A stretch of 40,092 nucleotides of DNA, from contig CANOGI010000001.1 in the NCBI GenBank assembly GCA_947565475.1, positions 1 to 40,092 of the forward strand. Direction: 5' to 3'. This DNA comes from an uncultured Eubacteriaceae bacterium. Its GTDB lineage: Bacteria > Bacillota > Clostridia > Lachnospirales > CAG-274. A model generated the notes under the pieces. The model was not told the DNA's origin. It saw only the letters and a program-made list of their open reading frames with translations, and made no database searches. Shown here piece by piece: positions 18,394 to 38,598 of the stretch; position 1 is the first letter of the stretch; each line of letters opens with the position of its first letter. The position numbers and the translations under genes were made by a program.

Positions 18394-18424
18394 CCTATGA
18401 GGTAAAAAGCAAAGTTTCTTGGGA

Positions 18425-18508: not shown

Positions 18509-18522
18509 AAAAAAGCTTTGTC

Positions 18523-18610: not shown

Positions 18611-18615
18611 ATTGA

Positions 18616-20172
18616 CTATCTCATATTTTCAATAGTCCGCCATATGTCGTCGGTTATTTGACCTATACGCCATATTGATATTTTGTTTATTCCGAACATT
18701 TTAGCGAGACAGATTTTATCTTGTACGCTTTGAGAGTTTTCATACCATAATACCGTTTTTTGATTTTTATCGTTGGTATACACCGCTTTTGGATTTTTAT
18801 ATTTATCAGAATACTCTATAACGGTATCAGGCTGTGAGAGTCTTTTTTCCACGGTTTCCTGACTCGGGTGCTCAGAGTACTCATTTGTTACTTTTCCATT
18901 TTCGTCTAATGTCCAGCAGGATGTTGAAGCTAAACTTAGCGCCAACGAGATTTTATTTTTATCGTCAATTTGAGACGACGCCTCTTTTAACGCTGTGTAT
19001 ATTTGATTAAAAGGAGTTACGGGAGTTGTCGTAAACCCGGCGTTTCTTTCTTCCTCATTCATGGAGGACGCTCCGTAATCGTGAGCCATTATAATTACCA
19101 TATCGGAGATTTTTCCGATAGTTTTATAATCATACCCGTTAAAATATTCCCCACTCATTACAGGGTGAACCGCTGTGTAAATAAATTTTTCGGGTGGAAG
19201 ATTTTGACGGAGCTCATTTAAAAACAAGTTAAGTCCGTTTCTCAGCTCGTCTCCTTTCATTCCCTCAAAATCAATAGTGACTCCGTTGAAATCAGAGGAG
19301 GAGGAAATTATGCTCTCGACGGCCTTTTTTCTGTTTTCATCGCTCAAAAGTATTGTACGGCAGGCATTTTCGCCATTTTTTCCCTTTTGCTCCGTATTCA
19401 TAATCACCGCTAAACTTATAGGGATATTTTTTTCCTTAAAATAATTAAGCGCCTCATCAGAGCCATCGGGGATTTTCCAGTCGTTGTTATTTTCTGACGT
19501 GGTGTTTAATACAACGCCTTTTGTGTCATCATACTCAAGTCTGCCCCAGCCGAAAGAAACACAGTTTGTTTTGGCGGCTAAATCTCTCTGCGCCCAGGAG
19601 GATATGGCGTAAAAACTGTGTATAAAATCTATTTTGGAGTTATATCTCTCGTATAGCCTGTGGATTATTACCGCCGCTTCCTCTCTTGACAACGTATCGT
19701 TTGGTAAAAATGTGTTATTGCCTTTTCCGCTTATAATTCCTAAATCGTACGCCATCGTTATAAAACCTTTATCAGTGTCAGAAAAAGGGGAGTCTTTTGA
19801 GTCAATATATTTATAAAGGTCTCCGTAATTTAAGTAAGATATTATTTGGGCGACTATGTTCCCAGCCGCATCCTCTCTCGTAATATAACCGTCCGAAATA
19901 TGAGGAAAGGTCGAACTGCCGGTTACTTTGGCGAGCATAGAGCTAAACTCGGAGTATTTTACGGGTTGTCCCATACCGAATTTATCGTCTCCAATACCCT
20001 GAATAATTCCTTTCTCAGTGAGAGATTCTATATATTTTTCAGCCCAGTGTCCTTTGGGCACGTCTGAATAAGCGTATACGTCGGAAAATGTAAAGTAAAG
20101 GGCTATTAACAGACTTAAATTTAATCTTTTTATTAAATTTCTTTTTATTTTTATGGAGAATTTCTTTTTCAT
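18616..20172 (-). CDS. SLH-domain glycoside hydrolase family 18-like cell-wall protein
   Basis: Signal peptide. SLH-type repeats (YSDVPKGHWAEKYIESLTEKGIIQG; FSDTDKGFITMAYDLGIISGKGNNTFLPNDTLSREEAAVII). GH18-type catalytic strand FNGVTIDFEGM. AAGGAG RBS 11 nt upstream. Confidence 0.75.
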   Translation of the reverse strand: MKKKFSIKIKRNLIKRLNLSLLIALYFTFSDVYAYSDVPKGHWAEKYIESLTEKGIIQGIGDDKFGMGQPVKYSEFSSMLAKVTGSSTFPHISDGYITREDAAGNIVAQIISYLNYGDLYKYIDSKDSPFSDTDKGFITMAYDLGIISGKGNNTFLPNDTLSREEAAVIIHRLYERYNSKIDFIHSFYAISSWAQRDLAAKTNCVSFGWGRLEYDDTKGVVLNTTSENNNDWKIPDGSDEALNYFKEKNIPISLAVIMNTEQKGKNGENACRTILLSDENRKKAVESIISSSSDFNGVTIDFEGMKGDELRNGLNLFLNELRQNLPPEKFIYTAVHPVMSGEYFNGYDYKTIGKISDMVIIMAHDYGASSMNEEERNAGFTTTPVTPFNQIYTALKEASSQIDDKNKISLALSLASTSCWTLDENGKVTNEYSEHPSQETVEKRLSQPDTVIEYSDKYKNPKAVYTNDKNQKTVLWYENSQSVQDKICLAKMFGINKISIWRIGQITDDIWRTIENMR

Positions 20173-20223: not shown

Positions 20224-20252
20224 TTGACAGTTCTTTTAAAATATGGTATTAT
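20224..20252 (+). promoter_or_regulatory. candidate strong sigma-A promoter facing rpoB
   Basis: TTGACA (20224-20229), exactly 17-bp spacer, TATTAT (20247-20252) preceded by TGG (extended -10). About 610 nt upstream of the rpoB ATG. No better promoter was seen closer to rpoB. Confidence 0.55.
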
Positions 20253-20605
20253 CAATAAATGTATCGATAAGTGGTAAAATATAGTTTTATAAGTGATTTG
20301 CCTAAAAATATATTTATAAATATTATATTTTTAAGCTTTTATATTATAGTTTCTTTTAATTTTTATATAGTATAACATATAATTTTACTAAATTCAACAA
20401 TTATTTTTTTAAAATATTTTTTCAAAGTTATTTTTCTAAAGCGACTTATGTGAAACGTGAAACTCACCGAGGGGTTTATTATAACAGAGACTCAAGATTT
20501 TAACGGCGTTAAGTTAAATTCGCCGTTTTGATTGGGCGGTCTGTTGAGTCGGCTAATGGCGGTATTTTGACATTTGCCGGTGCTTGTCGGCGATTTTTTG
20601 CGTTT

Positions 20606-20804
20606 AACCGACAGAGGAAGTCACCTGCTTATTAAGCGGGGGAACTTACTCTTGTATTAAAAGGAGTGCAAGCCAGGTTGCAAGGGCAAGCAGTAAAATG
20701 AAGTTTTGCGACCAGCCCCACACTGAATACAAAGGCGAATACTTTCGCCGTCGGTTACGAGAATTTTTGCTATTTTGTTATATGAAAATTCGAGTAGTCT
20801 TGAC
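20606..20804 (+). repeat. R-A family copy inside the rpoB leader (199 bp, enlarged hairpin-3 loop)
   Basis: AACCGACAGAGGAAGTCACCTGC...GCGGGGGAACTTAC...CTTGTATTAAAAGGAGTGCAAGCC[~45 nt extra]CTGAATACAAAGGCGAATACTTTCGCCGTCGGTTACGAGAATTTTTG...AAAATTCGAGTAGTCTTGAC. Hairpin 2 carries mismatches compared with other copies. Confidence 0.8.
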
Positions 20805-20871
20805 CGCTTTGTTTTCTCACGGAAGAAATTTCCGTAATTTATATACTATTATTTTAAGGAGTGAAGGCGCC

Positions 20872-23800
20872 ATGGAGAAAAACAGAATACGCCCCGTCAA
20901 GCTTGGCGACGTGGTTCGTATGAGTTATTCGAGGATAGACGAAGTTTTGGAGATGCCTAATCTGCTCGCTTTGCAGAAGGACAGCTATAAGTGGTTCTTG
21001 GAGGAAGGCCTCAAGGAGGTTTTTGAGGATATTTCCCCTATATGTGATTACAGCGGAAATCTTGTTCTTGAATTCACGGATTTTACTTTTGATTCCGAAC
21101 CTAAATATGACATTCCCGAATGTAAAGAACGTGACGCGACTTACGCGGCGCCTTTTAAAGTAAAAGCGCGCCTTAGAAACAAGGAAATCGACGAGATTAA
21201 AGAACAGGAAATTTTTATGGGGGATTTTCCTCTGATGACGGATACTGGAACTTTTGTTATTAACGGCGCCGAGCGTGTTATTGTAAGTCAGCTTGTTCGT
21301 TCTCCCGGTATTTATTACGCTATTGAGAAAGACAAAGTCGGCAAAAATCTTTTAAGCTCCACCGTTATCCCGAACAGAGGCGCTTGGATTGAGTATGAGA
21401 CAGACTCTAACGATGTGTTTTACGTAAGAGTCGATAGAACGAGAAAGGTTCCTGTTACGGTTTTAATACGCTCCTTGGGAATCGGAACCGATGAAGAAAT
21501 TCTTGAGCTTTTCGGAAATGAGCCAAAAATGTCGGCGACTATTGAAAAGGACACGACAAAAACAAAAGAAGAAGGACTCATCGAGATTTATAAGAAAATA
21601 AGACCAGGGGAACCTCCTACTGTCGATAGTTCTGAAACCTTACTTAATAATATGTTTTACGACCCTAAAAGATACGATTTAGCTAAAGTGGGACGATATA
21701 AATTTAACAAAAAGCTCGCTTTTAGAAACCGTGTCAGAGGCTATAAACTTGCCGAAAACGTGGTGGATCCGTCGACAGGAGAGGTCATTGCCGAGAAAGA
21801 TACGAAAATTACCGCGGAGATAGCGGATTCTATCCAAAATACGGGTGTACCTTATATTTGGGTTGTCGTAGGGGAAGTGAACGAGGAGAGAAACGTCAAG
21901 GTTTTGTCAAATCTTACAGTTTCTATAGACGAGTATATAAAGCCTTACGGTCTTACCGCGAAAGAGCTTAAAATTAAAGAAAAAGTTTATTATCCGGCTC
22001 TTATGGAGATAATTTCATCAAGCGACGGCAAAGAGGAAATTAAGGCCTCTATTTTAAATAATATTACAAAGCTTATTCCAAAACATATTACCCTTGAGGA
22101 TATTATGGCGTCGATAAACTATGTTATGCATCTCGACTACGGTATCGGAAACAAAGATGACATCGACCATCTAGGAAACAGACGTATTAGAGCCGTTGGC
22201 GAGCTTTTGCAAAATCAGTTCAGGATAGGTCTCTCAAGAATGGAAAGAGTTGTACGTGAGAGAATGACTATTCAGGATATGGACGCTATCACTCCTCAGG
22301 CTTTAATAAATATTAAACCTGTTACAGCCGCTATTAAAGAGTTTTTCGGAAGTTCTCAGCTTTCACAGTTTATGGACCAGAACAACCCTTTAAGTGAGAT
22401 GACCCATAAACGCCGTCTGTCAGCTTTGGGCCCCGGAGGTCTCTCAAGAGAGAGGGCCGGTTTTGAGGTTCGTGACGTTCACTCTTCCCATTATGGAAGA
22501 ATGTGCCCCATAGAGACGCCGGAGGGACCTAACATCGGTCTTATTAACTCTTTGGCTACTTTCGCCAGAATAAATGAGTATGGCTTTATTGAGGCTCCTT
22601 ATCGCATTATTGACAAGACGGGGGATATTCCAAGAGTTACTGACGATTTTATTTACGTTACCGCCGACGAGGAGGAAGCGTATGTCGTAGCTCAAGCTAA
22701 TGAACCCCTTAATGAGAATGGCGAGTTTATAAACGCCAAGGTTACGGCGAGACTTGGTGAGGAAAACGTAGAGATGGACGCCAATAAAATAGACCTTATG
22801 GACGTTTCACCTAAACAGCTTGTATCGGTGGCCACAGCTCTTATTCCTTTCCTTGAGAACGACGACGTTACCCGTGCCCTTATGGGTTCCAATATGCAGC
22901 GTCAGGCGGTTCCTCTTTTGACGACGGAGGCTCCCGTGGTAGGTACAGGTATGGAACATAAAACCGCCAAAGACTCTGGTGTTGTTATTGTGGCTAAACA
23001 TTCAGGAGTTGTCGAGAAGGTTGACGCTTCAGAGATAGTTGTTTTATGTCAGAATGGTTCTAAAGACCGTTATAAGATGACTAAGTTTAAAAGAAGCAAT
23101 CAATCTAACTGTATGAATCAGAGACCGATTGTTTTTAAAGGCGACAAGGTAAAGGAAGGTCAGATTATTGCCGACGGTCCATCAACAAGAGACGGTGAGC
23201 TTGCGCTCGGTAAAAATCCTCTTATCGGGTTTATGACGTGGGAAGGCTATAATTATGAGGACGCTGTTTTGCTCAGCGAGAAACTTGTGGCCGACGACGT
23301 TTACACTTCCGTTCATATTGAGGAATATGAGGCGGAGGCGAGAGACACTAAACTCGGACAAGAGGAAATCACGAAGGATATTCCAAACGTCGGCGAGGAC
23401 GCTTTAAGAGACCTTGACGAAGAGGGTATCATAAGAGTTGGCGCTGAAGTTCAGCCAAATGATATTTTAGTCGGAAAAGTAACTCCTAAGGGAGAAACAG
23501 AGCTTACAGCGGAAGAGCGTCTTTTGCGCGCGATTTTCGGTGAGAAAGCGAGAGAGGTCAGAGATACTTCTCTGCGTGTTCCTCATGGTGAGAGCGGAAT
23601 TATTGTGGACATTAAGAAGTTTACGAGAGAAAATAACGACGAGCTCCCTCCTGGGGTTAATCAGCTTGTACGCGTTTATATAGCTCAGAAAAGAAAAATT
23701 TCTGTAGGAGATAAAATGGCGGGACGTCACGGTAACAAAGGTGTTGTTTCCCGTGTGCTTCCTGTTGAGGATATGCCGTTTTTACCTAACGGACGACCTC

Positions 23801-24825
23801 TTGACATCGTGCTTAATCCTCTTGGCGTGCCGTCTCGTATGAATATAGGACAGGTGCTTGAGATACATTTAAGTCTCGCCGCTAAAGTACTTGACTGGAA
23901 AGTCGCCACACCTGTATTCGACGGCGCTAAGGAAATAGACATTATGGATACTCTTGAGCTCGCTAACGATTACGCCAATTTAGAGTGGGAGGACTTTTCA
24001 GAGAAATGGGAAAGTGTCCTTGACCCGGAAATTTTTGAGTATCTTGATAAAAATAAGGCCCACCGTGAGGAATGGAAAGGCGTTCCTATTAATAATACGG
24101 GTAAAATCAAACTTAGGGACGGACGTACGGGAGAGGAGTTTGACAACCCAACGACTGTAGGATTTATGCACTATTTGAAACTTCATCATCTTGTTGACGA
24201 CAAAATTCATGCCCGTTCCACAGGTCCTTATTCTTTAGTTACTCAGCAGCCTTTGGGCGGTAAGGCCCAGTTTGGCGGACAGCGTTTTGGAGAGATGGAG
24301 GTTTGGGCTCTTGAGGCTTATGGCGCTTCTTATACGCTTCAAGAAATTCTTACCGTTAAATCTGACGACATTGTTGGACGTGTGAAAACCTATGAGGCTA
24401 TCGTGAAAGGTGAGAATATTCCGGAGCCGGGTGTTCCGGAATCCTTTAAAGTTCTTTTAAAAGAACTTCAGGCGCTGGGGCTCGATGTTCGAGTGCTTAG
24501 AGAAGACGATACGGAGGTTGAAATCAAGGAGGACCTTGACGACGACGATATAGGCGTTATTGATGTGAATATTGAGGGCGTTGAGAAAGATGACTATTTA
24601 GAAAAGGAAGAGGAAGAAACCGACATTGTTGATACGGTTCTTAACAATCCTGAGCTTTTAGACGAACTTGAGATAGATGAGGACGATATAGAGATAGACG
24701 ATGATGATATTCTTATTGATGAGGATGAGAACGATATAGAGATAGACGATGAGCTTTTCAACGATTTAGATGATTTTGAGGATGAAAACGGTATTGATGA
24801 GATAATTAAAGATGACGAAGAATAG
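20872..24825 (+). CDS. rpoB: DNA-directed RNA polymerase subunit beta
   Basis: Unmistakable beta-subunit sequence (e.g. [74 protein letters not shown]). ATG 20872 with AAGGAG at 20856-20861. The 58 codons upstream in the ORF track are read-through of the R-A repeat. Confidence 0.98.
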
Positions 24826-24842: not shown

Positions 24843-27800
24843 ATGCATGCACAAAACGGCGAACAGGCTATAACTTTTGATTATATTAAAATTGGTTTGG
24901 CGTCTCCTGAGAAAATTCTTGATTGGTCATACGGTGAAGTTAAAAAACCCGAAACTATTAATTACAGAACTTTAAAGCCGGAGAGGGACGGTCTTTTCTG
25001 TGAGAGAATTTTCGGACCAAGCAAAGACTGGGAATGTCACTGTGGAAAATTTAAGAGAATAAGATATAAGGGCATTATATGTGACCGTTGCGGCGTTGAG
25101 GTTACAAAAAGCAAGGTAAGACGAGAAAGAATGGGGCACATAAAACTTGCCGCCCCTGTTTCTCATATATGGTATTTTAAAGGTATTCCGAGCCGTATGG
25201 GTATTATACTCGGTATGTCTCCGAGAGCTCTGGAAAAAGTGCTTTATTTCGCGTCATATGTTATTCTTGACCCGGGAAACAACACCTCCCTTGTATACAA
25301 AGATTTGCTTACCGAAAAGGAATACAGGGACGCCAGAGATAAATACGGCGATACTTTTAAAGTTGGAATGGGAGCGGAGGCTATTAAGATTCTTCTCCGT
25401 GACATAAATCTTGAGAAAGAATCCGTTGAGCTTAAAAAAGAACTTAAAAACAGTACGGGACAAAAAAGAGTGCGTATTATAAAAAAGCTTGAGGTCATTG
25501 AGTCTTTCAGGGTTTCAGGAAATAAGCCTGAATGGATGATTCTTGATGTGATACCTGTTATACCTCCTGATTTGCGTCCTATGGTTCAGTTAGACGGCGG
25601 AAGATTCGCCACTTCTGACCTTAACGACCTTTACAGGAGAGTCATTAACAGAAATAATAGGCTTCAAAGACTTCTTGACTTACACGCTCCTGACATAATT
25701 GTGAGAAATGAGAAAAGAATGCTTCAAGAGGCTGTTGACGCTCTTATTGACAACGGTAGGAGAGGCAGACCTGTCACAGGCCCCGGAAACAGAAGCCTTA
25801 AATCTCTTTCTGACCTTTTAAAAGGTAAACAGGGGCGTTTCCGTCAAAACCTCTTGGGAAAACGAGTTGATTATTCAGGACGTTCCGTTATTGTTGTCGG
25901 ACCTAATCTTAAAATTTATCAATGCGGTCTTCCTAAGGAGATGGCTATTGAGCTTTTTAAACCTTTTGTTATGAAAAAGCTTGTTGAGGACGGGCAGGCT
26001 CACAACATTAAGTCGGCGAAACGTATGGTTGAGAGACTTCAGACAGAAGTATGGGACGTTTTAGAAGATGTTATAAAAGAACATCCCGTTATGTTGAACC
26101 GAGCTCCGACTCTTCACAGGCTTGGTATTCAGGCTTTTGAGCCTGTATTGGTTGAGGGAAGGGCCTTAAAGCTTCATCCACTTGTTTGTACCGCTTATAA
26201 CGCCGATTTTGACGGCGACCAAATGGCCGTTCACGTTCCTCTATCTGTTGAGGCACAGGCGGAATGCAGATTTTTGCTTTTAGCGCCAAACAATCTTTTG
26301 AAACCTTCTGACGGGGAGCCTGTTACTGTTCCGTCTCAGGATATGGTATTGGGAATTTATTATCTTACTCTTGAGAAAGACGGGGAACCTGGAGAGGGAA
26401 AAGTTTTTAAAGATGAAAACGAGGCTCTGCTTGCTTATGACAATCATGTCATCAGTCTTCACGCCAAAATTAAGGTGAGAAGGACTCTTGAGATTGACGG
26501 TGTTTTACAGTCTCAGATTGTTGATACAACAGTGGGCAGGATTATTATAAATGAGATTATTCCTCAGGATATTGGTTTTGTGGACAGAAGTATTCCTGAA
26601 AACCGATTTAAGTATGAAATAGATTTTCTTACGGACAAAAAAGGTCTGGGGAAAATTATTAATAGATGTATTAACAAGCATACAGCCACGGAAACAGCTG
26701 TTGTTCTTGACAATATAAAAGGACTTGGCTTTAAGTTCTCTACAAGGGGAGCTTTGACAGTTTCCGTTTCCGATATGGAAATTCCAAAAGAAAAGGTCGA
26801 GTATCTCGCTGAGGCGGACAAAGTTGTTGACAAGATAACTAAGATGTACAGGCGAGGGCTTATGACAGACGAGGAAAGACACGCTAAAGTTATTAAAGCG
26901 TGGGAAGTGGCTGACGATAAAATAACAAACGCTCTGTTAGCGGGGCTTGGTAAATATAACGACATTTATATGATGGCGCATTCTGGCGCCCGTGGTTCCA
27001 ACAGACAGATTAAACAGCTTGCCGGAATGCGTGGGCTTATGGCGTCTCCGTCAGGAGAGACAATCGAGCTTCCTATTAAGGCGAACTTCAGAGAGGGTCT
27101 CTCAGTTCAGGAATACTTTATTTCCGCTCATGGGGCGAGAAAGGGTCTCTCTGATACAGCTCTTCGTACGGCGGACTCCGGTTATCTTACCCGTCGTCTT
27201 GTAGACGTTTCTCAGGAAATTATTATTCACGAATGGGACTGCGCCGAGGGCGAGGATGAGGTTCCAGGAATGAGAGTAAGCGCTTTTATGGACGGGCAAG
27301 AGGTTATAGAGCCTTTATCAGACCGTATCAGAGGAAGATATGCCGTGGAGGATATTTATCACCCTGAAACAGGAAAACTTCTGGCGAAAGCGGACAGCAT
27401 GATTTCCCCTGACCAAGCTGACGCTATTGAGGCATCTGGAATTAAGACAGTTCATATCAGAACAATCCTCTCATGCCGCGCGAGAAAAGGCGTATGCTCT
27501 AAGTGTTATGGCGCTAATATGGCTTCAGGAAGAATTGTAAGAATAGGGGAGTCGGTAGGTATTATCGCCGCTCAGTCTATCGGTGAGCCTGGAACACAGC
27601 TTACTATGCGTACTTTCCATACGGGCGGTGTTTCTGGAAACGACCTTACGCAAGGTCTTCCACGTGTAGAGGAGCTTTTTGAGGCGAGAAAGCCAAAGGG
27701 TCTTTCTATTATCTCTGAGACAGGCGGTAAAGTCACCGTCACAGACACCAAAAAGAAGAGAGAAGTTACCGTTATTAGTGAGAACGGCGAGGTTAAAGAG

Positions 27801-28388
27801 TATCTCATACCTTACGGTTCCCGTATTAAAGTGCTTAACGGAGATGTTATAGAGGCAGGCGACGAGCTTACGGAAGGAAGTGTAAACCCTCATGATATTT
27901 TAAGAATTAAAGGTATCAGAGGGGTTCAAGACTATATGATTCAAGAAGTTCAGCGTGTATACAGGCTTCAAGGTGTTGACATTAACGATAAGCATGTTGA
28001 GGTTATTGTAAGGCAGATGCTTAAACGCATTAAAGTTGAGGAAAACGGTGATACAAATTTCTTGCCGGGAAGTCTTATAGACTGGCTTGAGTTTGAGGCC
28101 GTGAACAAAGAAATGCTTAAAGAGGGGCTTGAACCCGCTAATGGTTCAAGGGTACTGTTGGGTATCACAAAAGCCGCTTTGGCTACGGAATCGTTCCTTT
28201 CGGCGGCTTCTTTCCAGGAAACAACGAGAGTTCTTACGGAAGCGGCCATTAAAGGCAAGGTTGACCCTCTTATCGGTCTTAAAGAAAATGTTATTATCGG
28301 TAAACTTATTCCCGCCGGTACGGGTATGAATACTTACAGAAAAATTGACCTTAAACTTATTGATAAGGAAAATGTAGCGGGAGAATAA
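24843..28388 (+). CDS. rpoC: DNA-directed RNA polymerase subunit beta'
   Basis: Zn-finger [23 protein letters not shown], catalytic [14 protein letters not shown], trigger-loop and bridge-helix regions. GGAAGGAG RBS upstream. Confidence 0.98.
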
Positions 28389-28422
28389 TTGATTTTATAA
28401 ATTTTATATAAATGACCTGCTT

Positions 28423-28570
28423 AACCGACAAGAGGAAGTCCCCCGCTTAAAAAGCTGGGGACTTCCTCTTGTATTAAGTAGGAGTGCAAGCTCCAAATTA
28501 ATATAAGGGCGAATGATTTCGTTGTTGGTTACGAGAATTTTTGTTATACAAAAATTCTCGTAGTTTTGAC
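28423..28570 (+). repeat. R-A family, canonical 148-nt copy
   Basis: It starts 35 nt after the rpoC stop. All four hairpins are intact, including a perfect hairpin 4, TACGAGAATTTTTG-TTATA-CAAAAATTCTCGTA. Tail TAGTTTTGAC. Confidence 0.85.
28431..28476 (+). terminator. rho-independent terminator for rpoC (hairpin 2 of R-A)
   Basis: AGAGGAAGTCCCC(C)GC-TTAAAAA-GC(T)GGGGACTTCCTCT forms a stem of about 15 bp, followed by the T-rich TGTATT. It also faces the convergent minus-strand gene ending at 28592. Confidence 0.65.
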
Positions 28571-28591
28571 TGAGGTGATTAGTATTAGCTA

Positions 28592-29317
28592 TTAATTTTT
28601 TAATTCTATTCCGTTTTTAGAGGCAAAATTTTTTAATTTTTCAATATATATTTTATATTGATTTTGTATTTCGGCGAGTTTATCGGTATCTGTTAAGTTT
28701 CCATAATTTTTTACTGTTCTCTCAAAGGCGTTAATTTGGTTTAATAAAGTTATAAATTCTTCAGCGGAAGATTTATTCAGAGATGAACGATTTTCAGTTA
28801 TCTGGTTTATTATTGATTTTAATTCGCTAGCAGTGTAAGCCTTTTTTCCTGTTGAGCGGATTATATCTTTTTGACTTGTTTCGTTTGTATTTATTTCCGC
28901 TGTGTATGTGTCAGGATTCCATTTAACCTCGGCGTTAAACGCCTGTGAAACCGCTCTTAAAGGTATTAATGTACGATTATTTATTATTTTTGGTTCTACA
29001 TCAAGAATTACTTTTTTTGAATTTACCGACATTTCTTTTGAACCGATTTTCATAATAACAGTTATGTTTTTTTTGCGACATATTATAGTTCTGTTTTTTT
29101 CATTCCACTCAACAGAGGCGCCGAGCTCTTCTAGTATAGCCCGAAAAGGTACGAGGGTTGTACCTTTTTCGATTATAGGTTTTTGGTCGAAGTGTAAAAA
29201 TTTGTTGTTTAATTTAATTTTTATATCGGGCGATGCTGTTATGGAGAAAGGTGAGAGGAAAGTCAAGCAAATCAATGTTATAAAGCCACGCTTAAATAAT
29301 TTTTTTATAGATGACAT
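28592..29317 (-). CDS. secreted stalk-domain protein with C-terminal helical module
   Basis: Signal peptide. Stalk motifs EKGTTLVPFRAILEELGASVEWNEKNRTI and INNRTLIPLRAVSQAFNAEVKWNPDTYTA. C-terminus YKIYIEKLKNFASKNGIELKN. Confidence 0.75.
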   Translation of the reverse strand: MSSIKKLFKRGFITLICLTFLSPFSITASPDIKIKLNNKFLHFDQKPIIEKGTTLVPFRAILEELGASVEWNEKNRTIICRKKNITVIMKIGSKEMSVNSKKVILDVEPKIINNRTLIPLRAVSQAFNAEVKWNPDTYTAEINTNETSQKDIIRSTGKKAYTASELKSIINQITENRSSLNKSSAEEFITLLNQINAFERTVKNYGNLTDTDKLAEIQNQYKIYIEKLKNFASKNGIELKN

Positions 29318-29379
29318 TTATCAAATCTCCTTTTTTATTTGGAATTTCCGTAATTACATAGTTTAGAAAAGAATGGCAT

Positions 29380-29742
29380 TTATGGCGTATCGTTTAAGCC
29401 CACGTCATAGTTGAGAGTAATGCTGTTTTCCTCAGCTATATTCTCAATTTTCTCAATATAAATATCATATTGTTCAGTAATTTTATTTATTTTTTCCTGA
29501 GAGTCAAACTCTTTGGGATTGGAATTTATATTTTTTACATATTCTTTTATTTCTTTGACGAGAGAAACATATTCTTCTTTTGAGTCTAAGGAAAGGCTGT
29601 CCGCCTGAGAACTGATTGAGTCAATGACGGATACAAGTGTAGCGGCGGTTTTTTCATTATCTAACATATTATTAGACTGGCAACCTGCCAACAGAGTAAT
29701 TGAAAGGGGGACTGTAATTAAGGCACGCGAAATTTTTCTCAT
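29380..29742 (-). CDS. small lipoprotein consisting of the helical module only
   Basis: Lipobox LLAGC. C-terminal YDIYIEKIENIAEENSITLNY matches the module ending of neighbouring paralogs. Confidence 0.7.
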   Translation of the reverse strand: MRKISRALITVPLSITLLAGCQSNNMLDNEKTAATLVSVIDSISSQADSLSLDSKEEYVSLVKEIKEYVKNINSNPKEFDSQEKINKITEQYDIYIEKIENIAEENSITLNYDVGLNDTP

Positions 29743-29998
29743 TTTTGAACAAGCTCCTTATATATATAAGCTAACGACGTATATTTTATGCCAAAAATTT
29801 ATTTGTTTAAATTTTAAGCTTGGGATTATGGAAAAAAGTATTAAACAATATTATATTTTTATTTTATCCACTAAAAAAGTGATAATACAAGCCTTTTATT
29901 TATAAATTAAAAAATAAATTTATAAACAAAATTTAAAAGCTTTATATTATCACCTTTTTATGTAATTTACGATTCTTAATAATTATTTATTAAGAAAA

Positions 29999-30331
29999 TT
30001 ATTTAATTTCGATATTGTTTTTCTTAGCGATGTCTTTTAATTTAGTGTCAAGTTCCTCGATTTTAGCGAGAGCCTCGTCTAAATCAGCGTCATCTCCTGC
30101 TGAAGCGATAGACATAAGTTCAGTAGCCTCAGTCTGAAGAGCTTTCATATCTTCCTGAAGTTTAGCCTGAGCGTCAGCGTCTAATTTTGTAGCTTCCTGA
30201 GCTATAGTTGTAGCGGAAGTCATAAATTTCTGAGCCGCAGCCTGTACGTCTTCCTCAGTAGCTCCGCCACAGCCTGTAAATAAAGAAAGTGATAAAATAG
30301 AAACACCTAAAATTGATAAAAACTTTTTCAT
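29999..30331 (-). CDS. small Ala/Glu/Lys-rich lipoprotein with the helical module
   Basis: MKKFLSILGVSILSLSLFTGC lipobox. C-terminus KLKDIAKKNNIEIK. AAGGAG sits 9 nt upstream of ATG 30331; the ATG at 30349 in the ORF track would overlap this RBS. Confidence 0.7.
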   Translation of the reverse strand: MKKFLSILGVSILSLSLFTGCGGATEEDVQAAAQKFMTSATTIAQEATKLDADAQAKLQEDMKALQTEATELMSIASAGDDADLDEALAKIEELDTKLKDIAKKNNIEIK

Positions 30332-30394
30332 TGTAATAATCTCCTTCAATAAAAAATTAAAATGTTAATAAACTGTAAATTTTATTATAAAAAA

Positions 30395-30423
30395 ATTATA
30401 CCACACAAAATTTAATTTGTAAA
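30395..30423 (-). promoter_or_regulatory. candidate sigma-A promoter for the 29999-30331 lipoprotein gene
   Basis: The minus strand reads TTTACA (30423-30418), 17-bp spacer, TGG-TATAAT (-10 at 30400-30395, extended -10). About 60 nt upstream of the start codon. Confidence 0.55.
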
Positions 30424-30594
30424 TAAAAATTTTAATTTAATTTGGAATAATTTTTTATACTTTAGTTTATAATAATATGTATATAAAAAAGTGAAACACA
30501 AATAATTATAAACTATACATTTCATTATAACATATAAAATATTATTTGTAAATACGTTTTTTAATTATTTACATGAGCTTTTTTTTATGGGAAT

Positions 30595-31560
30595 TTATAA
30601 ACTATTTAAGTTTGAGAGAGTCTGGCTCATATTCTGTACGGCGTCAAGAAGTTCTTTTTCAGAGGTTATTGGTTTTACCGTGATATGATTCTTTTTAGCG
30701 AAAGAATTAAGTTTAACGGCATATTCCCCTAACTTAGACGGATTTGTCATATTATTTGTTATATCAACGGTAAATTCTTGACAAATTGTTTTAAATTCTG
30801 TTTGAGAAGATTTGTCCAAAGATGTTATGTTATTTATTATCGCTATAAAAGGAGCGTAAAAATCGTAATACGCCTGCATTAACTCAGAGTCTTCCGCCAT
30901 ATCTGAGGTATTTTCCATATCATCAACGGAATCCATTAAATCATTTAAAGATGATATAGGTTTTACTGTTATATTATTAGCTTTCGCCACGGCGTTAAGT
31001 TTAACAGCGTATTCATTCAATTTATCCGTGTTTGCCAAGATTTTGCCGAAATCGGATAAAATTTCTTTGTAAAGACTTATGACCTCTGGCATAGAGGCTT
31101 CTTTTATAACATCGGCGTTATCTGACACGGCTATACACGGCGCGAAAAAGTCAAGATATGCTCGTTCCCATTTTTGATAGTCGAAATTTTCGTAGTCAAA
31201 GTTTTTTATAGTGTCGGTTAAGAGAGCGTCAATATCAAGATTTTCAATATCTTCTAATAAACCATCCAAATCTTTTTTCAGAGCGGAGCTATTAGTAGAA
31301 GAATTTGAGTTTGAAGTGGGATTTGAAACTGAGGAAGAATCTAAACCCGAAAGTTTGGAAGCGGGATTTGAAACTGAGGAAGAATCTAAACCCGAAAGTT
31401 TGGAAGCGTTATAAGAATTAGCGCTTTCGGAGTCTTTTACGGAAGATTCAAAAGAAGACTCCGTGGTTGTTTGTTCAGTAGTCTCATCTGAGTCCCCACA
31501 GCCTGAAAGCAAAGCGAGGGATAAAAGAGAAACTCCCAAAATCGATAAAAATTTTTTCAT
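30595..31560 (-). CDS. lipoprotein with Ser-rich linker and two tandem helical modules
   Basis: MKKFLSILGVSLLSLALLSGC lipobox, nearly the same signal peptide as the 29999 gene. Two modules end LNAVAKANNITVKP and LNSFAKKNHITVKP. GGAGG RBS. Confidence 0.75.
   Translation of the reverse strand: MKKFLSILGVSLLSLALLSGCGDSDETTEQTTTESSFESSVKDSESANSYNASKLSGLDSSSVSNPASKLSGLDSSSVSNPTSNSNSSTNSSALKKDLDGLLEDIENLDIDALLTDTIKNFDYENFDYQKWERAYLDFFAPCIAVSDNADVIKEASMPEVISLYKEILSDFGKILANTDKLNEYAVKLNAVAKANNITVKPISSLNDLMDSVDDMENTSDMAEDSELMQAYYDFYAPFIAIINNITSLDKSSQTEFKTICQEFTVDITNNMTNPSKLGEYAVKLNSFAKKNHITVKPITSEKELLDAVQNMSQTLSNLNSL
31318..31407. repeat. perfect 45-bp tandem duplication inside the lipoprotein gene
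   Basis: GGGATTTGAAACTGAGGAAGAATCTAAACCCGAAAGTTTGGAAGC occurs at 31318-31362 and again at 31363-31407. In-frame, it encodes ASKLSGLDSSSVSNP twice on the minus strand. Confidence 0.9.
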
Positions 31561-31716
31561 TGTTAAAACCTCCTTAATTTTATTTTAAAACTGTTTGAGA
31601 TTTTTCAAACAATTTTTTTATGTACTGAAGTGCCGAGAGGAAAATTGTAATCAAATTTTAAGAGCACGTAAAGCGCGCGAACGGGAAGCTAAAAGAACAG
31701 CTTTCCGCATAATTGA

Positions 31717-32811
31717 TTATTTTTGTTTTTCAAATGGTATTTTTACCTCTATTATTCCGGAAGAATAGGGCGCTATCTCATATTGATTAAAGAAAAACAC
31801 AAGCCCGTCTTTGGAAACGTAGAAATTATCAGGCGATAAATCCTCAACGAGTTTTTCCGAGTCATCGTAAAAATTATCAGGATTTTCCTTTATCTCTTTT
31901 TTGAAAAGTTCTTTTACATCTTTTAAAATCGCCTCGGAATCTTTTCCGCAAAGTTCTTTAGCTACCTCGTCTAAAGTTACGGCGCCTGTCTCTATGTTAT
32001 ATGTTTTGGCTGATTTAAGCGTAGAGGGATGAGCTCCTCCCGTATATGACGTTTCAGTGCTTATTATTGAGAGATAGTTATCAAATTCGTCGGCGTCATA
32101 AGTGAGCGTAAACTCATAGGGGTGGAAGTTTTCTGTATTTTCGATGAATATGTCTTTTGCCTCTTTTTTTAAATTGTCAAGGGACATATCCATATCATCT
32201 GCTTTTTTATTTAAAAATTTCTCAGCCTGAGAGTTTCTTTTCTCCTCGAAAAGTGAATACGCTTTTTCACTTAATTTTTCTTTTAATAACTCTGAGTTTG
32301 TATATATTTTTGCCGTTATGAGGACGGTATCGCCGTCTGTTATATTACATGTTTCTGTGGCGATAGGATTCACGGTGTTAATTATTATTGTTTTAGTATT
32401 GGCATCGTAATTTATGACCGCACCTAACGCCTCGTTTATGACTTGGAGGGGAACAAGAGCTTTTCCATCTGTTATTTTCGCGGGAAACTCAATATGAATC
32501 TTTTTGCCGTTTACGTCGATTTCAGAAGCCCCGATTGTCACGCTTATGGTTTTATCATCCTTTGTACATATTATTGTTTTTGTGCTTTCATCCCATAAGA
32601 TTGACGCTCTTATTTCTTCCATAAAATTTCTGAAAGGTATAAAGGGGATTCCGTCTTCTATCGTAAAGGGCTGTTCAAGGTTGATTTCTTTATTATCAAG
32701 CGTTATGGTGAATGTTTTATTTTCTGTTATGGCAAGTATCGGAGATACTGAGCAATACTGCAAAACAGCGCTTAATAATATCGACGTTATTATTTTTAAT
32801 TTTCTTTTCAT
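31717..32811 (-). CDS. secreted stalk-domain protein fused to a DUF4163/DUF3298 (RsiV/PdaC-like) domain
   Basis: Stalk motifs EDGIPFIPFRNFMEEIRASILWDESTKTI and TDGKALVPLQVINEALGAVINYDANTKTI. The C-terminal half has SYTGGAHP and FNQYEIAPYSSGIIEVKIPF, typical of DUF3298. Confidence 0.75.
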   Translation of the reverse strand: MKRKLKIITSILLSAVLQYCSVSPILAITENKTFTITLDNKEINLEQPFTIEDGIPFIPFRNFMEEIRASILWDESTKTIICTKDDKTISVTIGASEIDVNGKKIHIEFPAKITDGKALVPLQVINEALGAVINYDANTKTIIINTVNPIATETCNITDGDTVLITAKIYTNSELLKEKLSEKAYSLFEEKRNSQAEKFLNKKADDMDMSLDNLKKEAKDIFIENTENFHPYEFTLTYDADEFDNYLSIISTETSYTGGAHPSTLKSAKTYNIETGAVTLDEVAKELCGKDSEAILKDVKELFKKEIKENPDNFYDDSEKLVEDLSPDNFYVSKDGLVFFFNQYEIAPYSSGIIEVKIPFEKQK

Positions 32812-32846
32812 TTTTAATTCTCCTTGTATGATAAGTTATTTATTTT

Positions 32847-32995
32847 AACCGACAGAGGAAGTCCCCCGCTTTTTAGGCGGGGGTACTTCTTCTTGTATTC
32901 AGGAAGAGTGCAAGCTCACTTTGAATACAAAGGCGAATATTTTTGCCGTCGGTTACGAGAATTTTTGTTATACAAAAATTCGAGTAGTATTGACT
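32847..32995 (+). repeat. R-A family, canonical 149-nt copy
   Basis: AACCGACAGAGGAAGTCCCCCGC-TTTTTA-GGCGGGGGTACTTC...CTTGTATTCAGG...TTGAATACAAAGGCGAATATTTTTGCCGTCGGTTACGAGAATTTTTGTTATACAAAAATTCGAGTAGTATTGAC. It lies between two minus-strand genes. Confidence 0.85.
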
Positions 32996-33108
32996 TGTAT
33001 GGAGTAAGTATAAGCTGATAGTAAATATAAATGTTATAATAATCTGTTGAAAGAATTTCGTGAAACAAAAATATAAATAGTTTTTGTTTAGATAAAAGCG
33101 GATTAATG

Positions 33109-34617
33109 TTAATCTTCTATTTTAATTTTATTTTTTTCCGCTAAAACTTTAAGTTCTTCAATATATTTTTTTAACTTCTTTTCCGCTGTGTCAATTTTTT
33201 CCTGTGTGTTCAGACGCTGACTGTTTGATAAAAGACCTTTTACATATTCTAATATCTCACTCATAAATTGGGTATGTTCTGAGGATTCGGGCAGACCTTT
33301 TTTAATTCGCATATAAATATTTGAAAGTTCTCTCTCCGCCGATATAAAACCGATTATGTCAAGGTCTTGCTGTTTTTCTTTAGCGGCGGATGTTCTCTTT
33401 AGATCCTCTATATAAATTTTCATTTCATTTGTAATTTCGTCAATTTCATTTTGAGACGAAAAACAGTTAAACATACTGTTTATAAATTTTAAGGAAATTT
33501 CATATGGTACAGCCATAGTCTCAGGGTTTTCCGAGTGGTCTTTGAGAAGTTCTTTTAATGTTTTGGTATATTCCGAATAGTCAAATTTAGTCATATTGTG
33601 TTCGGACATAAAGGTTTTAATTTTTTCAATAATTTTATTGAGTTTTATTTCTATTTCCTTAGTTTTCCCAATATCTTCGCTGTCATAGGAGGTTATATAA
33701 CCGTCCGCCAAAAATGATAATATATCGAGATAAATTTCTTTAGCCTCTTGATATGTTTCTGTATTTAAAGAGCCGGAAAGTTGAGAAACAAGCGGAATTA
33801 ACTCAATAACAGTTTCATTTTCAATAAATGAAAGAAAGCTTGTTATAAAGCATATACTGTTTTCAGCGCTTGTCTCAGAGTAAATAAGTCTGTCGTTTCT
33901 TTTAAACAAATCTGTTATTTTTTCGGCGTATTCTTTTTTTATATTCTGCTTTTTCTCAATTATTTGAGGGTCTCCGTTTTTAGAATTTTCAGTCAAATAA
34001 ACATAGTCCTTTGAGGTATAAAAATTAAATATAATTTCTTTCGCCTCTTCAATGGAGTTATCGTCAAAATCTTTTAGATTGGCTATTAACATAAAAGTAA
34101 TGTTTGACATCGTATTATCAGAAATATAACGATTTGTGTTAAAATCATATATGTCATCTGATGTGTTATGATTTATGAACTCGATAAGATTTTCAACATC
34201 TTTAATGTAGTGAACGACGGAGGAGTTAATAATTTTTGACACTGTAAAGTCGGATATGTAAGCCGTGGAGTTTATTACTTTCGAGGGAGACACGGATTCT
34301 TCGTAAATTTGATTGTTTACCGTAAAAGAGTCGGAGCCTATTGTAATGGAAAAATTTATTTTACCATTTGAGCCGTGTATTGTTTTTTTTGAGCTGTCGT
34401 AAATTATTTTATAGCCTATATTCTCAAAAAAAGTCCGAGCGGGCAAATAAGTCTCAAGACCGGTGTCGTCAAAAAATACAGGTTTATCAAGTTTAACGAT
34501 ATTTCCGTTTACCATTATTATAGTATTAGGATCAAAGTCCCCGAAAGTATAAACGGGAGCGGTAAAAGATAACGCGGTTACCGCTGTTAAAAATAAAGAA
34601 GCGAGCCTTTTTTTCAT
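33109..34617 (-). CDS. secreted protein with divergent stalk-like N-terminal domain and long helical region ending in the module
   Basis: Signal peptide. Divergent stalk pattern MVNGNIVKLDKPVFFDDTGLETYLPARTFFENIGYKIIYDSSKKTI. C-terminus YIEELKVLAEKNKIKIED. Weak RBS. Confidence 0.65.
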   Translation of the reverse strand: MKKRLASLFLTAVTALSFTAPVYTFGDFDPNTIIMVNGNIVKLDKPVFFDDTGLETYLPARTFFENIGYKIIYDSSKKTIHGSNGKINFSITIGSDSFTVNNQIYEESVSPSKVINSTAYISDFTVSKIINSSVVHYIKDVENLIEFINHNTSDDIYDFNTNRYISDNTMSNITFMLIANLKDFDDNSIEEAKEIIFNFYTSKDYVYLTENSKNGDPQIIEKKQNIKKEYAEKITDLFKRNDRLIYSETSAENSICFITSFLSFIENETVIELIPLVSQLSGSLNTETYQEAKEIYLDILSFLADGYITSYDSEDIGKTKEIEIKLNKIIEKIKTFMSEHNMTKFDYSEYTKTLKELLKDHSENPETMAVPYEISLKFINSMFNCFSSQNEIDEITNEMKIYIEDLKRTSAAKEKQQDLDIIGFISAERELSNIYMRIKKGLPESSEHTQFMSEILEYVKGLLSNSQRLNTQEKIDTAEKKLKKYIEELKVLAEKNKIKIED

Positions 34618-34658
34618 TTTAAATTCTCTCTTTCTGATTATAAGATTACATTATTAGA

Positions 34659-34872
34659 ACGTATCTGAAAACTGAAATACGCGCGAGAAATTATAAAAAA
34701 GCAAAATGAATTTGAAGCGTATCATTTTATTCTTTGGATATTCAGCCTTTTTAACAATATAGAAATTCGCGAAATTTTTAATATAAAATAACATTTGACA
34801 TTATTTGGATTTATTAAAGTTTATTTGTCTATTATTTTATTGTTAGCTATATACATAGTTTTCAGATACATA
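34659..34872. repeat. R-H family 214-bp element bounded by inverted repeats
   Basis: Terminal inverted repeats ACGTATCTGAAAACT (34659-34673) / AGTTTTCAGATACAT (34858-34872). The interior shares the AAATACGCG.GAGAAATTATAAAAAAG core with 1204-1240. Confidence 0.65.
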
Positions 34873-34893
34873 TAGGTTTAATATTTAAAATTA

Positions 34894-36351
34894 TTATATA
34901 ACTTTCAGTTGTAACTTTGCCGCGAGAAATTTCCACTCATCGTGAAGCTGAGTTATATTTTTTACGCAGTTAGCTATTTGAGCGTCCGTCATTTTCGTTA
35001 TTGTATCGAAAGCGGCTGAAAATTCAGGGTTGTCAGAATTGAGTTTAAACAGTTTTGAGTATGTGTCGAGAGTTTTTATATAAAGAGAGTTGTACTTTGC
35101 CTGATAATCAGAATACTTTTGCTTTAAGGTTTTTCCGTTCTCATCGGCGTCAAGGTCGGACGCTTTTTTTATAAAATTTTTTAAATATACTGTGAGGTCG
35201 AGATCCGCCTTTATAAGAGGTTTTATATCTGTTTTGCTCGATTTCTTAGTGGTTTTTCCACTTATTCCGAGGTTAATGTAAATTGTTTTCACATCCTCAA
35301 GTATTTCTTTTACCTCCTCTTCAGCGTCGAGAATATCATCTTTGCCGGGGATTAATTTATCCGGGTCGTCGGAGAGATACTCATTTTTGAATTTCTCAAT
35401 TCTCTTTATGTGTTTGTTATAAGGTTTTTCAGCAAAAGCGTATTTTTCTTTAAAAATATAGGGCTTATCGGCGCCGTCATCTATAGAGCGAACTGTATAG
35501 TTCTCAATATATTTTTCGTAAAGGTCTATGTCCGACATATAATCGGCGTAATCGGGAATACTACAGCCCACTTTATCGGCGAAGTTTTTAATCTCGTCTA
35601 TTAAAACATCTACGGAATCTTCAGAGAGATTTAATATTTTTTTCGCTTTTTTCATCTCGCATGAGTTTATATTGCTGTAATCTATATTTATTTTTCCAAA
35701 AGGCGAGTCTTTGCCGTTGAAAATGTCAGAAAAATACTCAAACTCTTTGGCGTAGGACTCGTATTCGGGTTTTAAAATTTTAGCCAGGGTCATATATGAG
35801 CCTTTATCAAGACATATTCCGTCGTTTAAAGCGTAGATATACAGTGAGAGTTTTGTGAGTTTTGACGATAAGACGGCGTCCTCGGAATTTACAGGAGAGT
35901 ATATGAACACTGTCTGAAGCTCACTATCCCAAAACACTTCTGAATTTAAGGCTTTTGACAGCGCTCTTAAAGGGATATATGTCGTACCGTCTATAAGAAC
36001 GGGTGGAACGTCTAAAAACACGTCGGCGTCCTCAGAAAACCGCATTATATTGCTGTTTATTACAAAAGTGAGGTATATATCGTCTTTTGAGCAAACTATT
36101 GTTTTTGTTTTTGGATTCCAATCTAAGGCGATATTCATCGCGTCAGCTATTTCTCTTAAAGGCACAAGAGTAACTCCGTCTTTAATTACAGGGTCTTTTG
36201 ATAAGTTTAAAATATTGTCGTCAAGTTCCACGATAATTTTATTGCTTGTCACCGAGTAAGAAACGGCGAAAGTTTTAAACGTTTCTGTCGATGAGAAAAT
36301 TAAAGCGGATAAAATGATAAAAGATAAAAATTTTATAAAATATTTTCTCAT
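34894..36351 (-). CDS. secreted stalk-domain protein with long helical C-terminal region
   Basis: Signal peptide. Stalk motifs KDGVTLVPLREIADAMNIALDWNPKTKTI and IDGTTYIPLRALSKALNSEVFWDSELQTV. Degenerate module ending FLAAKLQLKVI. AAGGTGA RBS. Confidence 0.72.
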   Translation of the reverse strand: MRKYFIKFLSFIILSALIFSSTETFKTFAVSYSVTSNKIIVELDDNILNLSKDPVIKDGVTLVPLREIADAMNIALDWNPKTKTIVCSKDDIYLTFVINSNIMRFSEDADVFLDVPPVLIDGTTYIPLRALSKALNSEVFWDSELQTVFIYSPVNSEDAVLSSKLTKLSLYIYALNDGICLDKGSYMTLAKILKPEYESYAKEFEYFSDIFNGKDSPFGKINIDYSNINSCEMKKAKKILNLSEDSVDVLIDEIKNFADKVGCSIPDYADYMSDIDLYEKYIENYTVRSIDDGADKPYIFKEKYAFAEKPYNKHIKRIEKFKNEYLSDDPDKLIPGKDDILDAEEEVKEILEDVKTIYINLGISGKTTKKSSKTDIKPLIKADLDLTVYLKNFIKKASDLDADENGKTLKQKYSDYQAKYNSLYIKTLDTYSKLFKLNSDNPEFSAAFDTITKMTDAQIANCVKNITQLHDEWKFLAAKLQLKVI

Positions 36352-37875: not shown

Positions 37876-38239
37876 GCGTATCTGAAAACTCTCCCTAACT
37901 GTTAAAAGTATATAAAACTTTATTTTTTTAAGATTATTTTTATTTTCTCAAAACTAAAATATACAAAAAATTATAAAAATAAACGAGATTTGACTGGCGT
38001 TTATTTTTTATTATTTCTCATACTAATCTTATAAGAGCTGTTAAGTAACAATATCTTTGCTAATTGTTATCATCTAAGTTATTTAGATGATATATTTAAA
38101 AAGTGGATATAATATATTAGGACGGTATAAAAACAAGGCGAATACTTTCACCGTCGGTTACAAGAATTTTTGCTATACAAAAATTCGAGTAGTTTTGATA
38201 AGAGATTAGTATTATGTATATTTTAGTTTTCAGGTACGC
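37876..38239. repeat. R-H family copy (364 bp) containing an R-A 3' fragment
   Basis: Terminal inverted repeats GCGTATCTGAAAACT (37876-37890) / AGTTTTCAGGTACGC (38225-38239). The interior is inverted relative to 34659-34872. It starts 35 nt upstream of the proS start codon. Confidence 0.6.
38124..38198 (+). repeat. R-A family, 3' half only
   Basis: ...ACAAGGCGAATACTTTCACCGTCGGTTACAAGAATTTTTGCTATACAAAAATTCGAGTAGTTTTGA. Hairpins 1-3 are absent. Confidence 0.7.
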
Positions 38240-38583: not shown

Positions 38584-38598
38584 CTTATTTACTTATGC

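Follow-up and report, generated by a model that had tools for sequence, protein, structure and literature searches.

The window analysed here is the whole of contig CANOGI010000001.1, 40,092 nt of DNA from an uncultured Firmicute with a GC content of about 37%, and our subject is a structured repeat, R-A, whose copies are dispersed along it. The genes of the window include a polysaccharide cluster, YitT, a MalK-type ATPase, many Cu_amine_oxidN1 "stalk" proteins, proC, an SLH/GH18 protein, rpoB (20872-24825), rpoC (24843-28388), proS, and ftsH, and the cumulative GC skew climbs throughout on the + strand. RpoC is 83-88% identical to its counterparts in [Clostridium] colinum, Tyzzerella, and Anaeropeptidivorans. 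A preliminary description, made from the letters alone, had reported nine copies of R-A and had compared the repeat to non-autonomous IS200/IS605-type elements, with a structured RNA family as the alternative. The results reported below show that R-A is an insertion, not a conserved RNA.

Repeat searches grouped the copies as families D1, D2, D3, and D9, and a self-BLAST of the window recovered them. A covariance model (R1) was built from an alignment of eight copies (A1), and a search of the window with filters off returned eight places scoring 35 to 173 bits (E 1e-10 to 1e-42): 32843-32997 (173 bits), 28419-28573 (160 bits), 14431-14583 (135 bits), 20602-20807 (131 bits), 12612-12751 together with its 3' end at 12874-12900 (117 bits), 38081-38202 (53 bits, 3' part only), 18422-18512 on the minus strand (51 bits), and 15870-16011 (35 bits). 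These searches confirmed that the family is real and lies where it had been placed, and eight of the nine reported copies are firm. The ninth, a fragment at 755-814, was below the reach of R1 in the window search, although an alignment of about 70 nt between it and copy 14431 beat all 500 shuffles; on this comparison it is a plausible but weak member. One position had to be changed, as a copy described as lying just after the YitT stop codon starts 215 nt past it. The unit is 146 nt long, running from CCGAC to TTGAC, and three copies exceed this length owing to other small elements nested within. Pairwise identity among the copies is 65-86% with no clean sorting by genome; the family is old and heterogeneous.

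Database searches agreed with the earlier statement that R-A is no named Rfam family. Rfam 15 gave no match at the gathering threshold over the whole window and, at E <= 10 over 13.4 kb, nothing but spurious hairpin noise of the microRNA type. A tRNA/tmRNA scan of the window found none, and BLAST of the canonical copy in distant mode against phage and plasmid collections gave no match. Pattern scans yielded only chance matches in IMG/VR, as checked with R1, and seven chance matches in the JGI metagenomes, all in coding DNA. Among 185,579 GTDB species genomes the core pattern GTYGGTTACRAGAATTTTT matched 24 times, of which 19 were chance matches in coding DNA and five were real. All five real matches fell within one metagenome-assembled genome (MAG), the "uncultured Eubacteriaceae bacterium" CAMTZM01, which has a GC content of about 31% and an RsmA nearest to Lachnospirales proteins. 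R1 found seven copies in 40 kb fetched from this MAG (5 x 8 kb). No R-A copy was found in 162 kb of eight related loci, namely L053 (RpoC 95% identical to that of the window), L043, L044, and L054 (94%), L045 and L046 (90%), L047 (C. colinum, 87%), and L055, which was fetched via an RsmA homologue of CAMTZM01. L044 and L053, with RpoC at 94-95%, are syntenic with the window across the stretch that holds eight of its copies, and R-A is absent there.

Comparison of filled with empty orthologous sites defined the boundaries of the element. The cleanest pair comes from the second lineage, downstream of rsmA, where locus L018 is filled and locus L056 is empty; the RsmA of L056 is 91% identical to that of CAMTZM01, and its flanks are about 95% identical to those of L018. 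The empty site reads ...ACGATTAATTTTTTTATTTAA|TTTTAATCGAAG... (in short, ...ATTTAA|TTTTAATC), while the filled site reads ...ACGATTAATTTTTTTATTTAA|CCGATGAAGG...CATAGTCTTGAC|CTTTAATCAAC... (in short, ...ATTTAA|CCGAT...TTGAC|CTTTAATC), with an element that begins CCGATG and ends GTCTTGAC. The two loci differ by a simple insertion between TTTAA and (T/C)TTTAATC. Since TTTAA is already present in the empty L056, it belongs to the target; the element is therefore CCGAY...TTGAC, and nothing is duplicated. This places the left boundary at TTTAA|C and not, as first proposed, at TTTT|AAC. The absence of a target duplication, noted from the outset, was borne out both by this pair and by the lack of a flanking repeat at 12 of the 12 copies examined. 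Terminal inverted repeats are likewise missing, as had been said, the ends CCGAC... and ...TTGAC not being inverted copies of each other. A classical miniature inverted-repeat transposable element, which has both features, was rejected.

Empty orthologous sites were also found in the rpoB leader of two sister species. The leader of the window, L044, and L053 shares a conserved promoter of the sigma-70 type (TTGACA-17-TATTAT; 20224-20252, + strand, in the window) and a conserved hairpin with a T-run (20574-20599). Directly after this hairpin, in the window, stands an R-A copy in sense (20608-20804, + strand, found by R1, flank TTTAA at 20603-20607), and given the promoter upstream the copy lies inside the rpoB transcript. 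The filled site reads ...TTTTTTGCGTTTAA|CCGAC...TTGAC|CGCTTTG (in short, GCGTTTAA|R-A|CGC), compared with ...TTTTTTGCGTTCAA|TGTTTTT in L044 (in short, GCGTTCAA|TG) and ...TTTTTTGCGTTCAT|CTTTTAT in L053 (in short, GCGTTCAT|CT). A paralogous site within the window gave the same picture. Two copies of a different small element, family i, share GATTTTAA and ACACCG..GAACTTG, and between these lies R-A in one copy and a different small element in the other (GATTTTAA|R-A|ACCGTCGAACTTG versus GGATTTTAA|other element|ACACCGAACTTG).

The canonical copy folds with -69.9 kcal/mol (z = -9.5) on the + strand and with -56.2 kcal/mol on the minus strand. In the consensus fold, helix P1 closes a four-way junction with P2, P3, and P4, and the junction is followed by hairpin P5 and a 10-nt tail. 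P1 pairs AACCGAC with GTCGGTT around a core of CCGAC/GTCGG and can be extended into the flank motif. The long, GC-rich hairpin P2 begins at a distance of 5 nt from the left end, and its GC core at 14 nt; the arms of P3 are TGTATTCAG.../...CTGAATACA, and P4 is GGCGAA-loop-TTCGCC. P5, outside the junction, pairs CGAGAATTTTTG with CAAAAATTCTCG and stops 10 nt before the right end, ahead of the tail TAGTnTTGAC. The four stems of the preliminary description were all recovered, but a fifth helix, P4, had been overlooked, and the core is a four-way junction. A pseudoknot between CUUG of the tail and CAAG of the P3 loop is possible in several copies and was dropped for want of covariation in alignment A4.

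Alignment A4, comprising 15 distinct copies related to each other, was used to examine covariation. Standard pairs filled 89.6% of pair cells, as against 39-47% in controls with slid partners, and 13 pairs showed double changes compared with 7.6 +/- 1.8 in column shuffles. Two compensatory changes that had been pointed out earlier are present, an A-T versus a C-G pair in hairpin 2 (copy 12613 versus copy 28421) and, in copy 14431, a last hairpin that is re-sequenced with its pairing kept. Covariation lends real support, though to a modest degree, since the copies are related. G-T cells outnumbered A-C cells (40 versus 26), favoring the + strand.

Individual copies differ in how much of this structure they retain. 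The canonical copy, at 32849-32994 (+ strand, 146 nt, CCGAC...TTGAC, 173 bits with R1), has P1 to P5, the tail TAGTATTGAC, and the flank motif TTTAA at 32844-32848. The copy at 28425-28570 (+, 160 bits) lies in a convergent intergenic region, 33 nt past the stop codon of rpoC, between the flank CTTAA at 28420-28424 and its own end motif TTGAC at 28566-28570. Most divergent, at 65-72% identity to the others, is 14436-14580 (+, 135 bits), which starts 11-16 nt past the stop codon of the ABC-ATPase gene, has an altered flank (TTTAG+A) and end (TTAAA), and has P4 and P5 helices of different sequence that still pair. Small elements with terminal inverted repeats (TIRs) of families i, ii, and iii are associated with several copies, and three of the eight window copies contain one. 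The R1 copy at 12618-12900 (+, flank TTTAA at 12613-12617) sits inside a family-i element (about 12480-12939) and itself holds a family-iii element at about 12740-12873, in the loop of P5. The R1 copy at 15747-15998 (+, flank TTTAA at 15742-15746), which follows the stalk gene 14961-15722, has a family-ii element nested in P2 at about 15769-15877, and its P4, 3' strand of P1, and P5 are decayed. In the rpoB-leader copy a family-ii-like piece occupies the apex of P3 (about 20665-20720).

Other copies have been shortened. The sole minus-strand copy of the window, found by R1 at 18425-18506 with a flank TTTAA that is the complement of 18507-18511, has lost P2 and the 5' arm of P3, and a 17-nt deletion has removed the 5' arm of P5, an arm that strain L001, about 99% identical, keeps intact. 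Only the 3' part (P4, the 3' strand of P1, P5, and a tail ending TTGAT) remains at 38135-38199 (+; R1 and self-BLAST). The weak 5' fragment, at 757-825 (+, shuffle-tested alignment, flank CTTAA at 752-756), consists of the 5' strand of P1, a degenerate P2, and the 5' arm of P3, and is cut by a family-i element starting at 826. Some of the CAMTZM01 copies lack P2, or both P2 and P3.

Two further places bear on such remnants. Upstream of rsmA, one orthologous site with near-identical flanks retains different R-A modules in L018 (3594-3661; P1, the apex of P3, and half of P5) and in L056 (257-370; P2, P4, P5, and the tail), which means that either decay was fast and independent or the same TTTAA site was occupied more than once. 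A lone P3-like hairpin (model positions 50-87, 20-21 bits) lies just past a gene in L045 (1755-1792) and L046 (953-990), relatives without a full R-A, and could be chance or a last remnant.

The genes adjoining R-A copies are ordinary housekeeping genes. The strand bias noted in the preliminary description is present, with seven of the eight window copies on the + strand. In the CAMTZM01 loci six of seven copies follow the local GC skew, which brings the overall figure to 13 of 15. The same proportion (13/15) lies in sense with the neighboring transcription unit, usually with the upstream gene.

R-A might primarily be a functional structured RNA that became duplicated, either a small RNA gene or a cis-acting element of 3' untranslated or intercistronic regions, with the four-way junction as its unit. 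The fold is very stable and favors the + strand, pairing is kept with some double changes, G-U cells outnumber A-C cells, and the copies that lie in sense often begin 11-50 nt past the upstream stop codon. We nevertheless consider this reading improbable. R-A is absent from the orthologous sites of the nearest relatives, there is no promoter inside the unit, and Rfam has no match even at the relaxed threshold. The copies tolerate insertions of 100-130 nt in P2, P3, and P5 as well as the loss of whole helices, and two window copies are antisense to their neighbors. The covariation is modest among related copies, and the G-U excess could stem from a strand bias of C-to-T changes. The structured-RNA alternative of the preliminary description is thus weakened. 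Two candidate promoters were also rejected: an outward promoter from the TTGAC tail matches the consensus only in copy 38135 with its flank and is not general, and by inspection no -10 box follows the junction TTGAC+A... that would form on a circle.

The preliminary description had also proposed that hairpin 2 (P2) works as an intrinsic terminator, and R-A could accordingly be read as a set of portable terminators that end the upstream transcript. P2 is GC-rich and followed by a pyrimidine-rich stretch, the segment 32863-32883 passes a terminator scan, and the window has no other hairpin after rpoC, where the relative L044 has a canonical terminator. Against this, only one of eight copies passes the scan of the + strand, and the supposed U-tract, a pyrimidine run behind the GC core, is itself taken up in the pairing of the extended P2. 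The copy at 20608-20804, which is in sense, separates rpoB from its conserved promoter, and a strong terminator would not be tolerated there; in L020 and L027 the copies fill gaps of 100-220 nt between co-oriented genes; and in L025 the element comes directly after a perfect canonical terminator. As a general account this is poorly supported and very improbable, even more so than a functional RNA; local co-option as a terminator may have occurred after rpoC.

The boundaries point instead to a mobile element of a known kind. The left flank motif is TTTAA in 11 of 14 copies, CTTAA in two, and TTTAG in one, and the right end is TTGAC in 9 of 13. Between the flank TTTAA and the end TTGAC the differences fall at positions 3 and 5, as they do in ISGst2, where TTTAT and TTCAC show "only minor differences ... 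at positions 3 and 5" (PMC10055086), and in a Sulfolobus IS605, which pairs an insertion site TTTAA with an end motif TTCAC (PMC11043419). Palindrome-associated transposable elements (PATEs) are defined by the lack of terminal inverted repeats, the lack of a target duplication, palindromes near both ends, and a length too short for a transposase (PMC3119063, Table 4), and related IS605-type transposons depend on a targeting sequence of 4-6 nt on the 5' side (PMC3119063). All four of these descriptive features are found in R-A, together with a targeting sequence of that size, TTTAA. R-A is therefore a PATE by description and works like an IS200/IS605 passenger, and we infer that it belongs to IS200/IS605. 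The best account makes it a new family, restricted to its lineage, among the already known PATE-type elements. We think it probable, although well short of certain, that R-A is a PATE-type element confined to its lineage, lacks a transposase of its own, and is moved by the IS200/IS605 route with a TnpA encoded elsewhere.

The likeness extends beyond the definition. The PATEs of Haloquadratum walsbyi and Geobacillus stearothermophilus, like R-A, have neither TIRs nor duplications, are too short to encode a transposase, carry palindromes near their ends, follow a short conserved targeting oligonucleotide in the 5' flank, and form heterogeneous families (PMC3119063; PMC10055086). Haloarchaeal PATEs in addition show core deletions and other small elements inside their palindromes (PMC3119063), as the R-A copies described above do. 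R-A differs from these PATEs in its host, an uncultured Lachnospirales-like Firmicute, in having no known parent IS605-type transposon, in end hairpins that are unrelated in sequence, and in its interior and left end, which form a four-way junction closed by a helix of 8-9 bp that includes target bases. With IS200/IS605 elements (IS608, ISDra2, ISGst1-5, and Sulfolobus IS605) it shares insertion 3' of a pentanucleotide, for which TTTAA is documented, an end motif differing from the flank at positions 3 and 5, a right-end hairpin about 10 nt from the end, and no duplication; its orientation bias fits the replication strand, but fits the direction of transcription just as well. Unlike them it contains no tnpA, tnpB, or iscB, and a pairing of guide to motif in the manner of IS608 is not assignable.

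We hypothesize that R-A moves as single-stranded DNA, by "peel-and-paste", through a Y1 HUH transposase (TnpA) encoded elsewhere in the genome. TTTAA would be the transposon-adjacent motif and TTGAC the transposon-encoded end motif. P1 would pair TAA|CCGAC with GTCGG|TTA (GTCGGTTA), directly 5' of the right-end hairpin, and on single-stranded DNA of the + strand this helix could bring the left cleavage site beside the right end. If the + strand is the lagging-strand template and hence the active strand, the orientation bias would follow. Once inserted, copies are read through by neighboring genes and decay by deletions at hairpins and short repeats, and other small elements come to insert in them; an influence on the stability of mRNAs or on where they end would be secondary.

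Several observations count against this assignment. A Pfam search for tnpA and tnpB found none in the 40-kb contig, which has no transposase domain of any kind, or in any fetched locus, the 5 x 8 kb of CAMTZM01 included. Mobility, boundaries, and motifs strengthen the earlier comparison with non-autonomous IS200/IS605 elements, but the cognate transposase was not found in this DNA. The left and right 50 nt of four copies were no more similar in local alignment than shuffles, whereas the two end hairpins of IS608 and ISDra2 are alike; compared with IS608, moreover, the left hairpin of R-A lies closer to its end. In PATEs the end palindromes are identical only "in some cases" (PMC3119063). No clean boundary was obtained at the ABC-ATPase site between the window and L044, and strains 98-99% identical showed no presence/absence differences, every copy being kept, so that no recent movement is seen. 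Transcription fits the orientation bias as well as replication does (13/15 each), and the bias is therefore not specific evidence. Finally, the excess of G-T over A-C cells could also reflect a strong strand-specific C-to-T bias, as in the GC skew.

These points leave some room for a different mover, and it is conceivable, if unlikely, that R-A is mobile by another route, such as an IS607-type serine recombinase, an IS110-type recombinase, a rolling-circle enzyme of the IS91/Helitron kind, or recombination at TTTAA-rich sites. Mobility without a visible transposase, together with dissimilar end hairpins, speaks for this, and rolling-circle elements, too, have a hairpin some 10 nt short of the 3' end and neither TIRs nor a target duplication. 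Set against it are the relation between TTTAA and TTGAC, which matches published IS605 pairs position by position, the presence of all the descriptive features of PATEs, and the absence of the IS91 targets GTTC and CTTG from the R-A boundaries.

PATEs are known to carry omega-RNAs, and the geometry of R-A, a structured region of about 100 nt ending at TTGAC and then a variable flank, is compatible with one. Each copy might be a stand-alone omega-RNA gene in which the junction and P5 form the scaffold, ending at TTGAC, and the right flank serves as the guide. A TnpB-type nuclease encoded elsewhere would then re-cut emptied TTTAA sites, and RNA-guided homing would maintain the protein-less family, with the sense orientation after genes supplying transcription by read-through. 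We regard this proposal, with its parts, as rather unlikely, somewhat more so than a different mover, although less so than a primarily functional RNA.

Other identities were considered and rejected. The first three were judged by their known defining features. A group II intron fragment was dismissed because GUGYG/AY is absent, an integron attC site because there are no R''/R' cores, and retroposition of the kind seen for short interspersed nuclear elements because there is no A-tail and truncations occur at both ends. A coding remnant was dismissed because the open frame from P3 to the tail in 32849 is stopped in 28425 and not conserved.

Among bacterial repeats, BOX, RUP, and SPRITE of Streptococcus pneumoniae, also a Firmicute, resemble R-A in length (about 100-200 nt), in their modular make-up and intergenic position, and in being co-transcribed and strongly folded (PMC3049150). 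RUP is unlike R-A in having inverted ends and target duplications, and BOX is built of boxA, boxB, and boxC modules (PMC3049150). None of these three, nor bcr1, has the TTTAA|...TTGAC geometry of R-A. In the Bacillus cereus group, bcr1 is a strongly folding repeat of about 100-200 nt, likewise co-transcribed, intergenic, and modular, with inverted ends and target duplications. Like R-A, repetitive extragenic palindromes (REPs) and REPINs with RAYT (TnpA-like) genes are extragenic, abundant hairpin repeats, and their presumed mover is a domesticated Y1 HUH enzyme (PMC3116915). REPs are single palindromes of 20-40 nt, usually in inverted pairs and best known in Proteobacteria (PMC3116915), whereas R-A is 146 nt long with five helices and defined boundaries.

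A nine-copy structured repeat that had been unexplained can thereby be defined as a mobile element whose exact boundaries are TTTAA|CCGAC...TTGAC|, and elements of the PATE type, best described in haloarchaea and Geobacillus, extend to uncultured Lachnospirales-like anaerobes. Its unusual feature is the long Watson-Crick helix in which target bases and the left end pair with sequence beside the right-end hairpin. Copies should not be annotated as small RNAs or terminators. If a matching TnpA or TnpB is found, R-A would offer a compact, well-bounded substrate for work on the recognition of end and target motifs. The element also explains why short-read assemblies in this lineage break at these sites, other assemblies ending at the repeats, and why the intergenic regions here exceed those of sister species two- to fourfold in length.

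The intergenic regions of the window at 12398-13308, 14420-14961, and 18130-18616 are those that exceed their counterparts in L044 and L053 by this factor (for example, 910 versus 392 nt, and 541 versus 133 or 69 nt), almost entirely because small mobile elements are stacked there, and short-read contigs of the window organism end at these places. The three nested families have inverted ends. Family i has the ends TATAGTCAAAC...GTTTGACTATA and occurs at 12480-12939 (composite), 14803-14935, 18516-18612 (an almost perfect palindrome of 97 nt), 38593-38902, and about 826-900; in its copies at 12.5 kb and 38.6 kb, other elements are inserted after the same internal TTTTAA. Family ii, with the ends ACTAACTTAAA...TTTAAGTTAGT and an interior rich in short GC hairpins (GGGACGCTGTCCCAC, GGGTTTGGGCTGAAAGCCCAAG), lies in the window at about 15769-15877 and 18130-18395, with related pieces at 20665-20720, in L053 at 13560-13830, and in L044 at 5060-5400, and was found in several related species without R-A. 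Family iii has the ends AGTGAACAAAC...GTTTGTTCACT with apparently TTAA/TTTAA-like sequence on both sides, and uses the same TTTAA-type landing sites as R-A; it is found at about 12740-12873 and, in the opposite orientation, at 38725-38860, as well as in L053 at about 3790-3925. The rpoB leader is about 620 nt long (20224-20871 in the window, 5610-6027 in L044, and 5620-6042 in L053), with small mobile elements inserted in all three species, and its conserved hairpin and T-run (20574-20599) look like an attenuator.

The window also contains repeats of other kinds. Seven paralogous Cu_amine_oxidN1 stalk proteins are encoded in the 40 kb, within 14961-17114 and 28592-36351, and the number and arrangement of stalk genes vary among sister species (two in the window versus one in L044). 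A direct repeat of 100 nt, 77% identical between 30267-30366 and 31496-31595, spans the starts and upstream regions of two adjoining minus-strand genes with lipoprotein-like N-termini. Within the gene 30595-31560, at 31310-31399, two tandem copies of a 45-nt unit are 96% identical.

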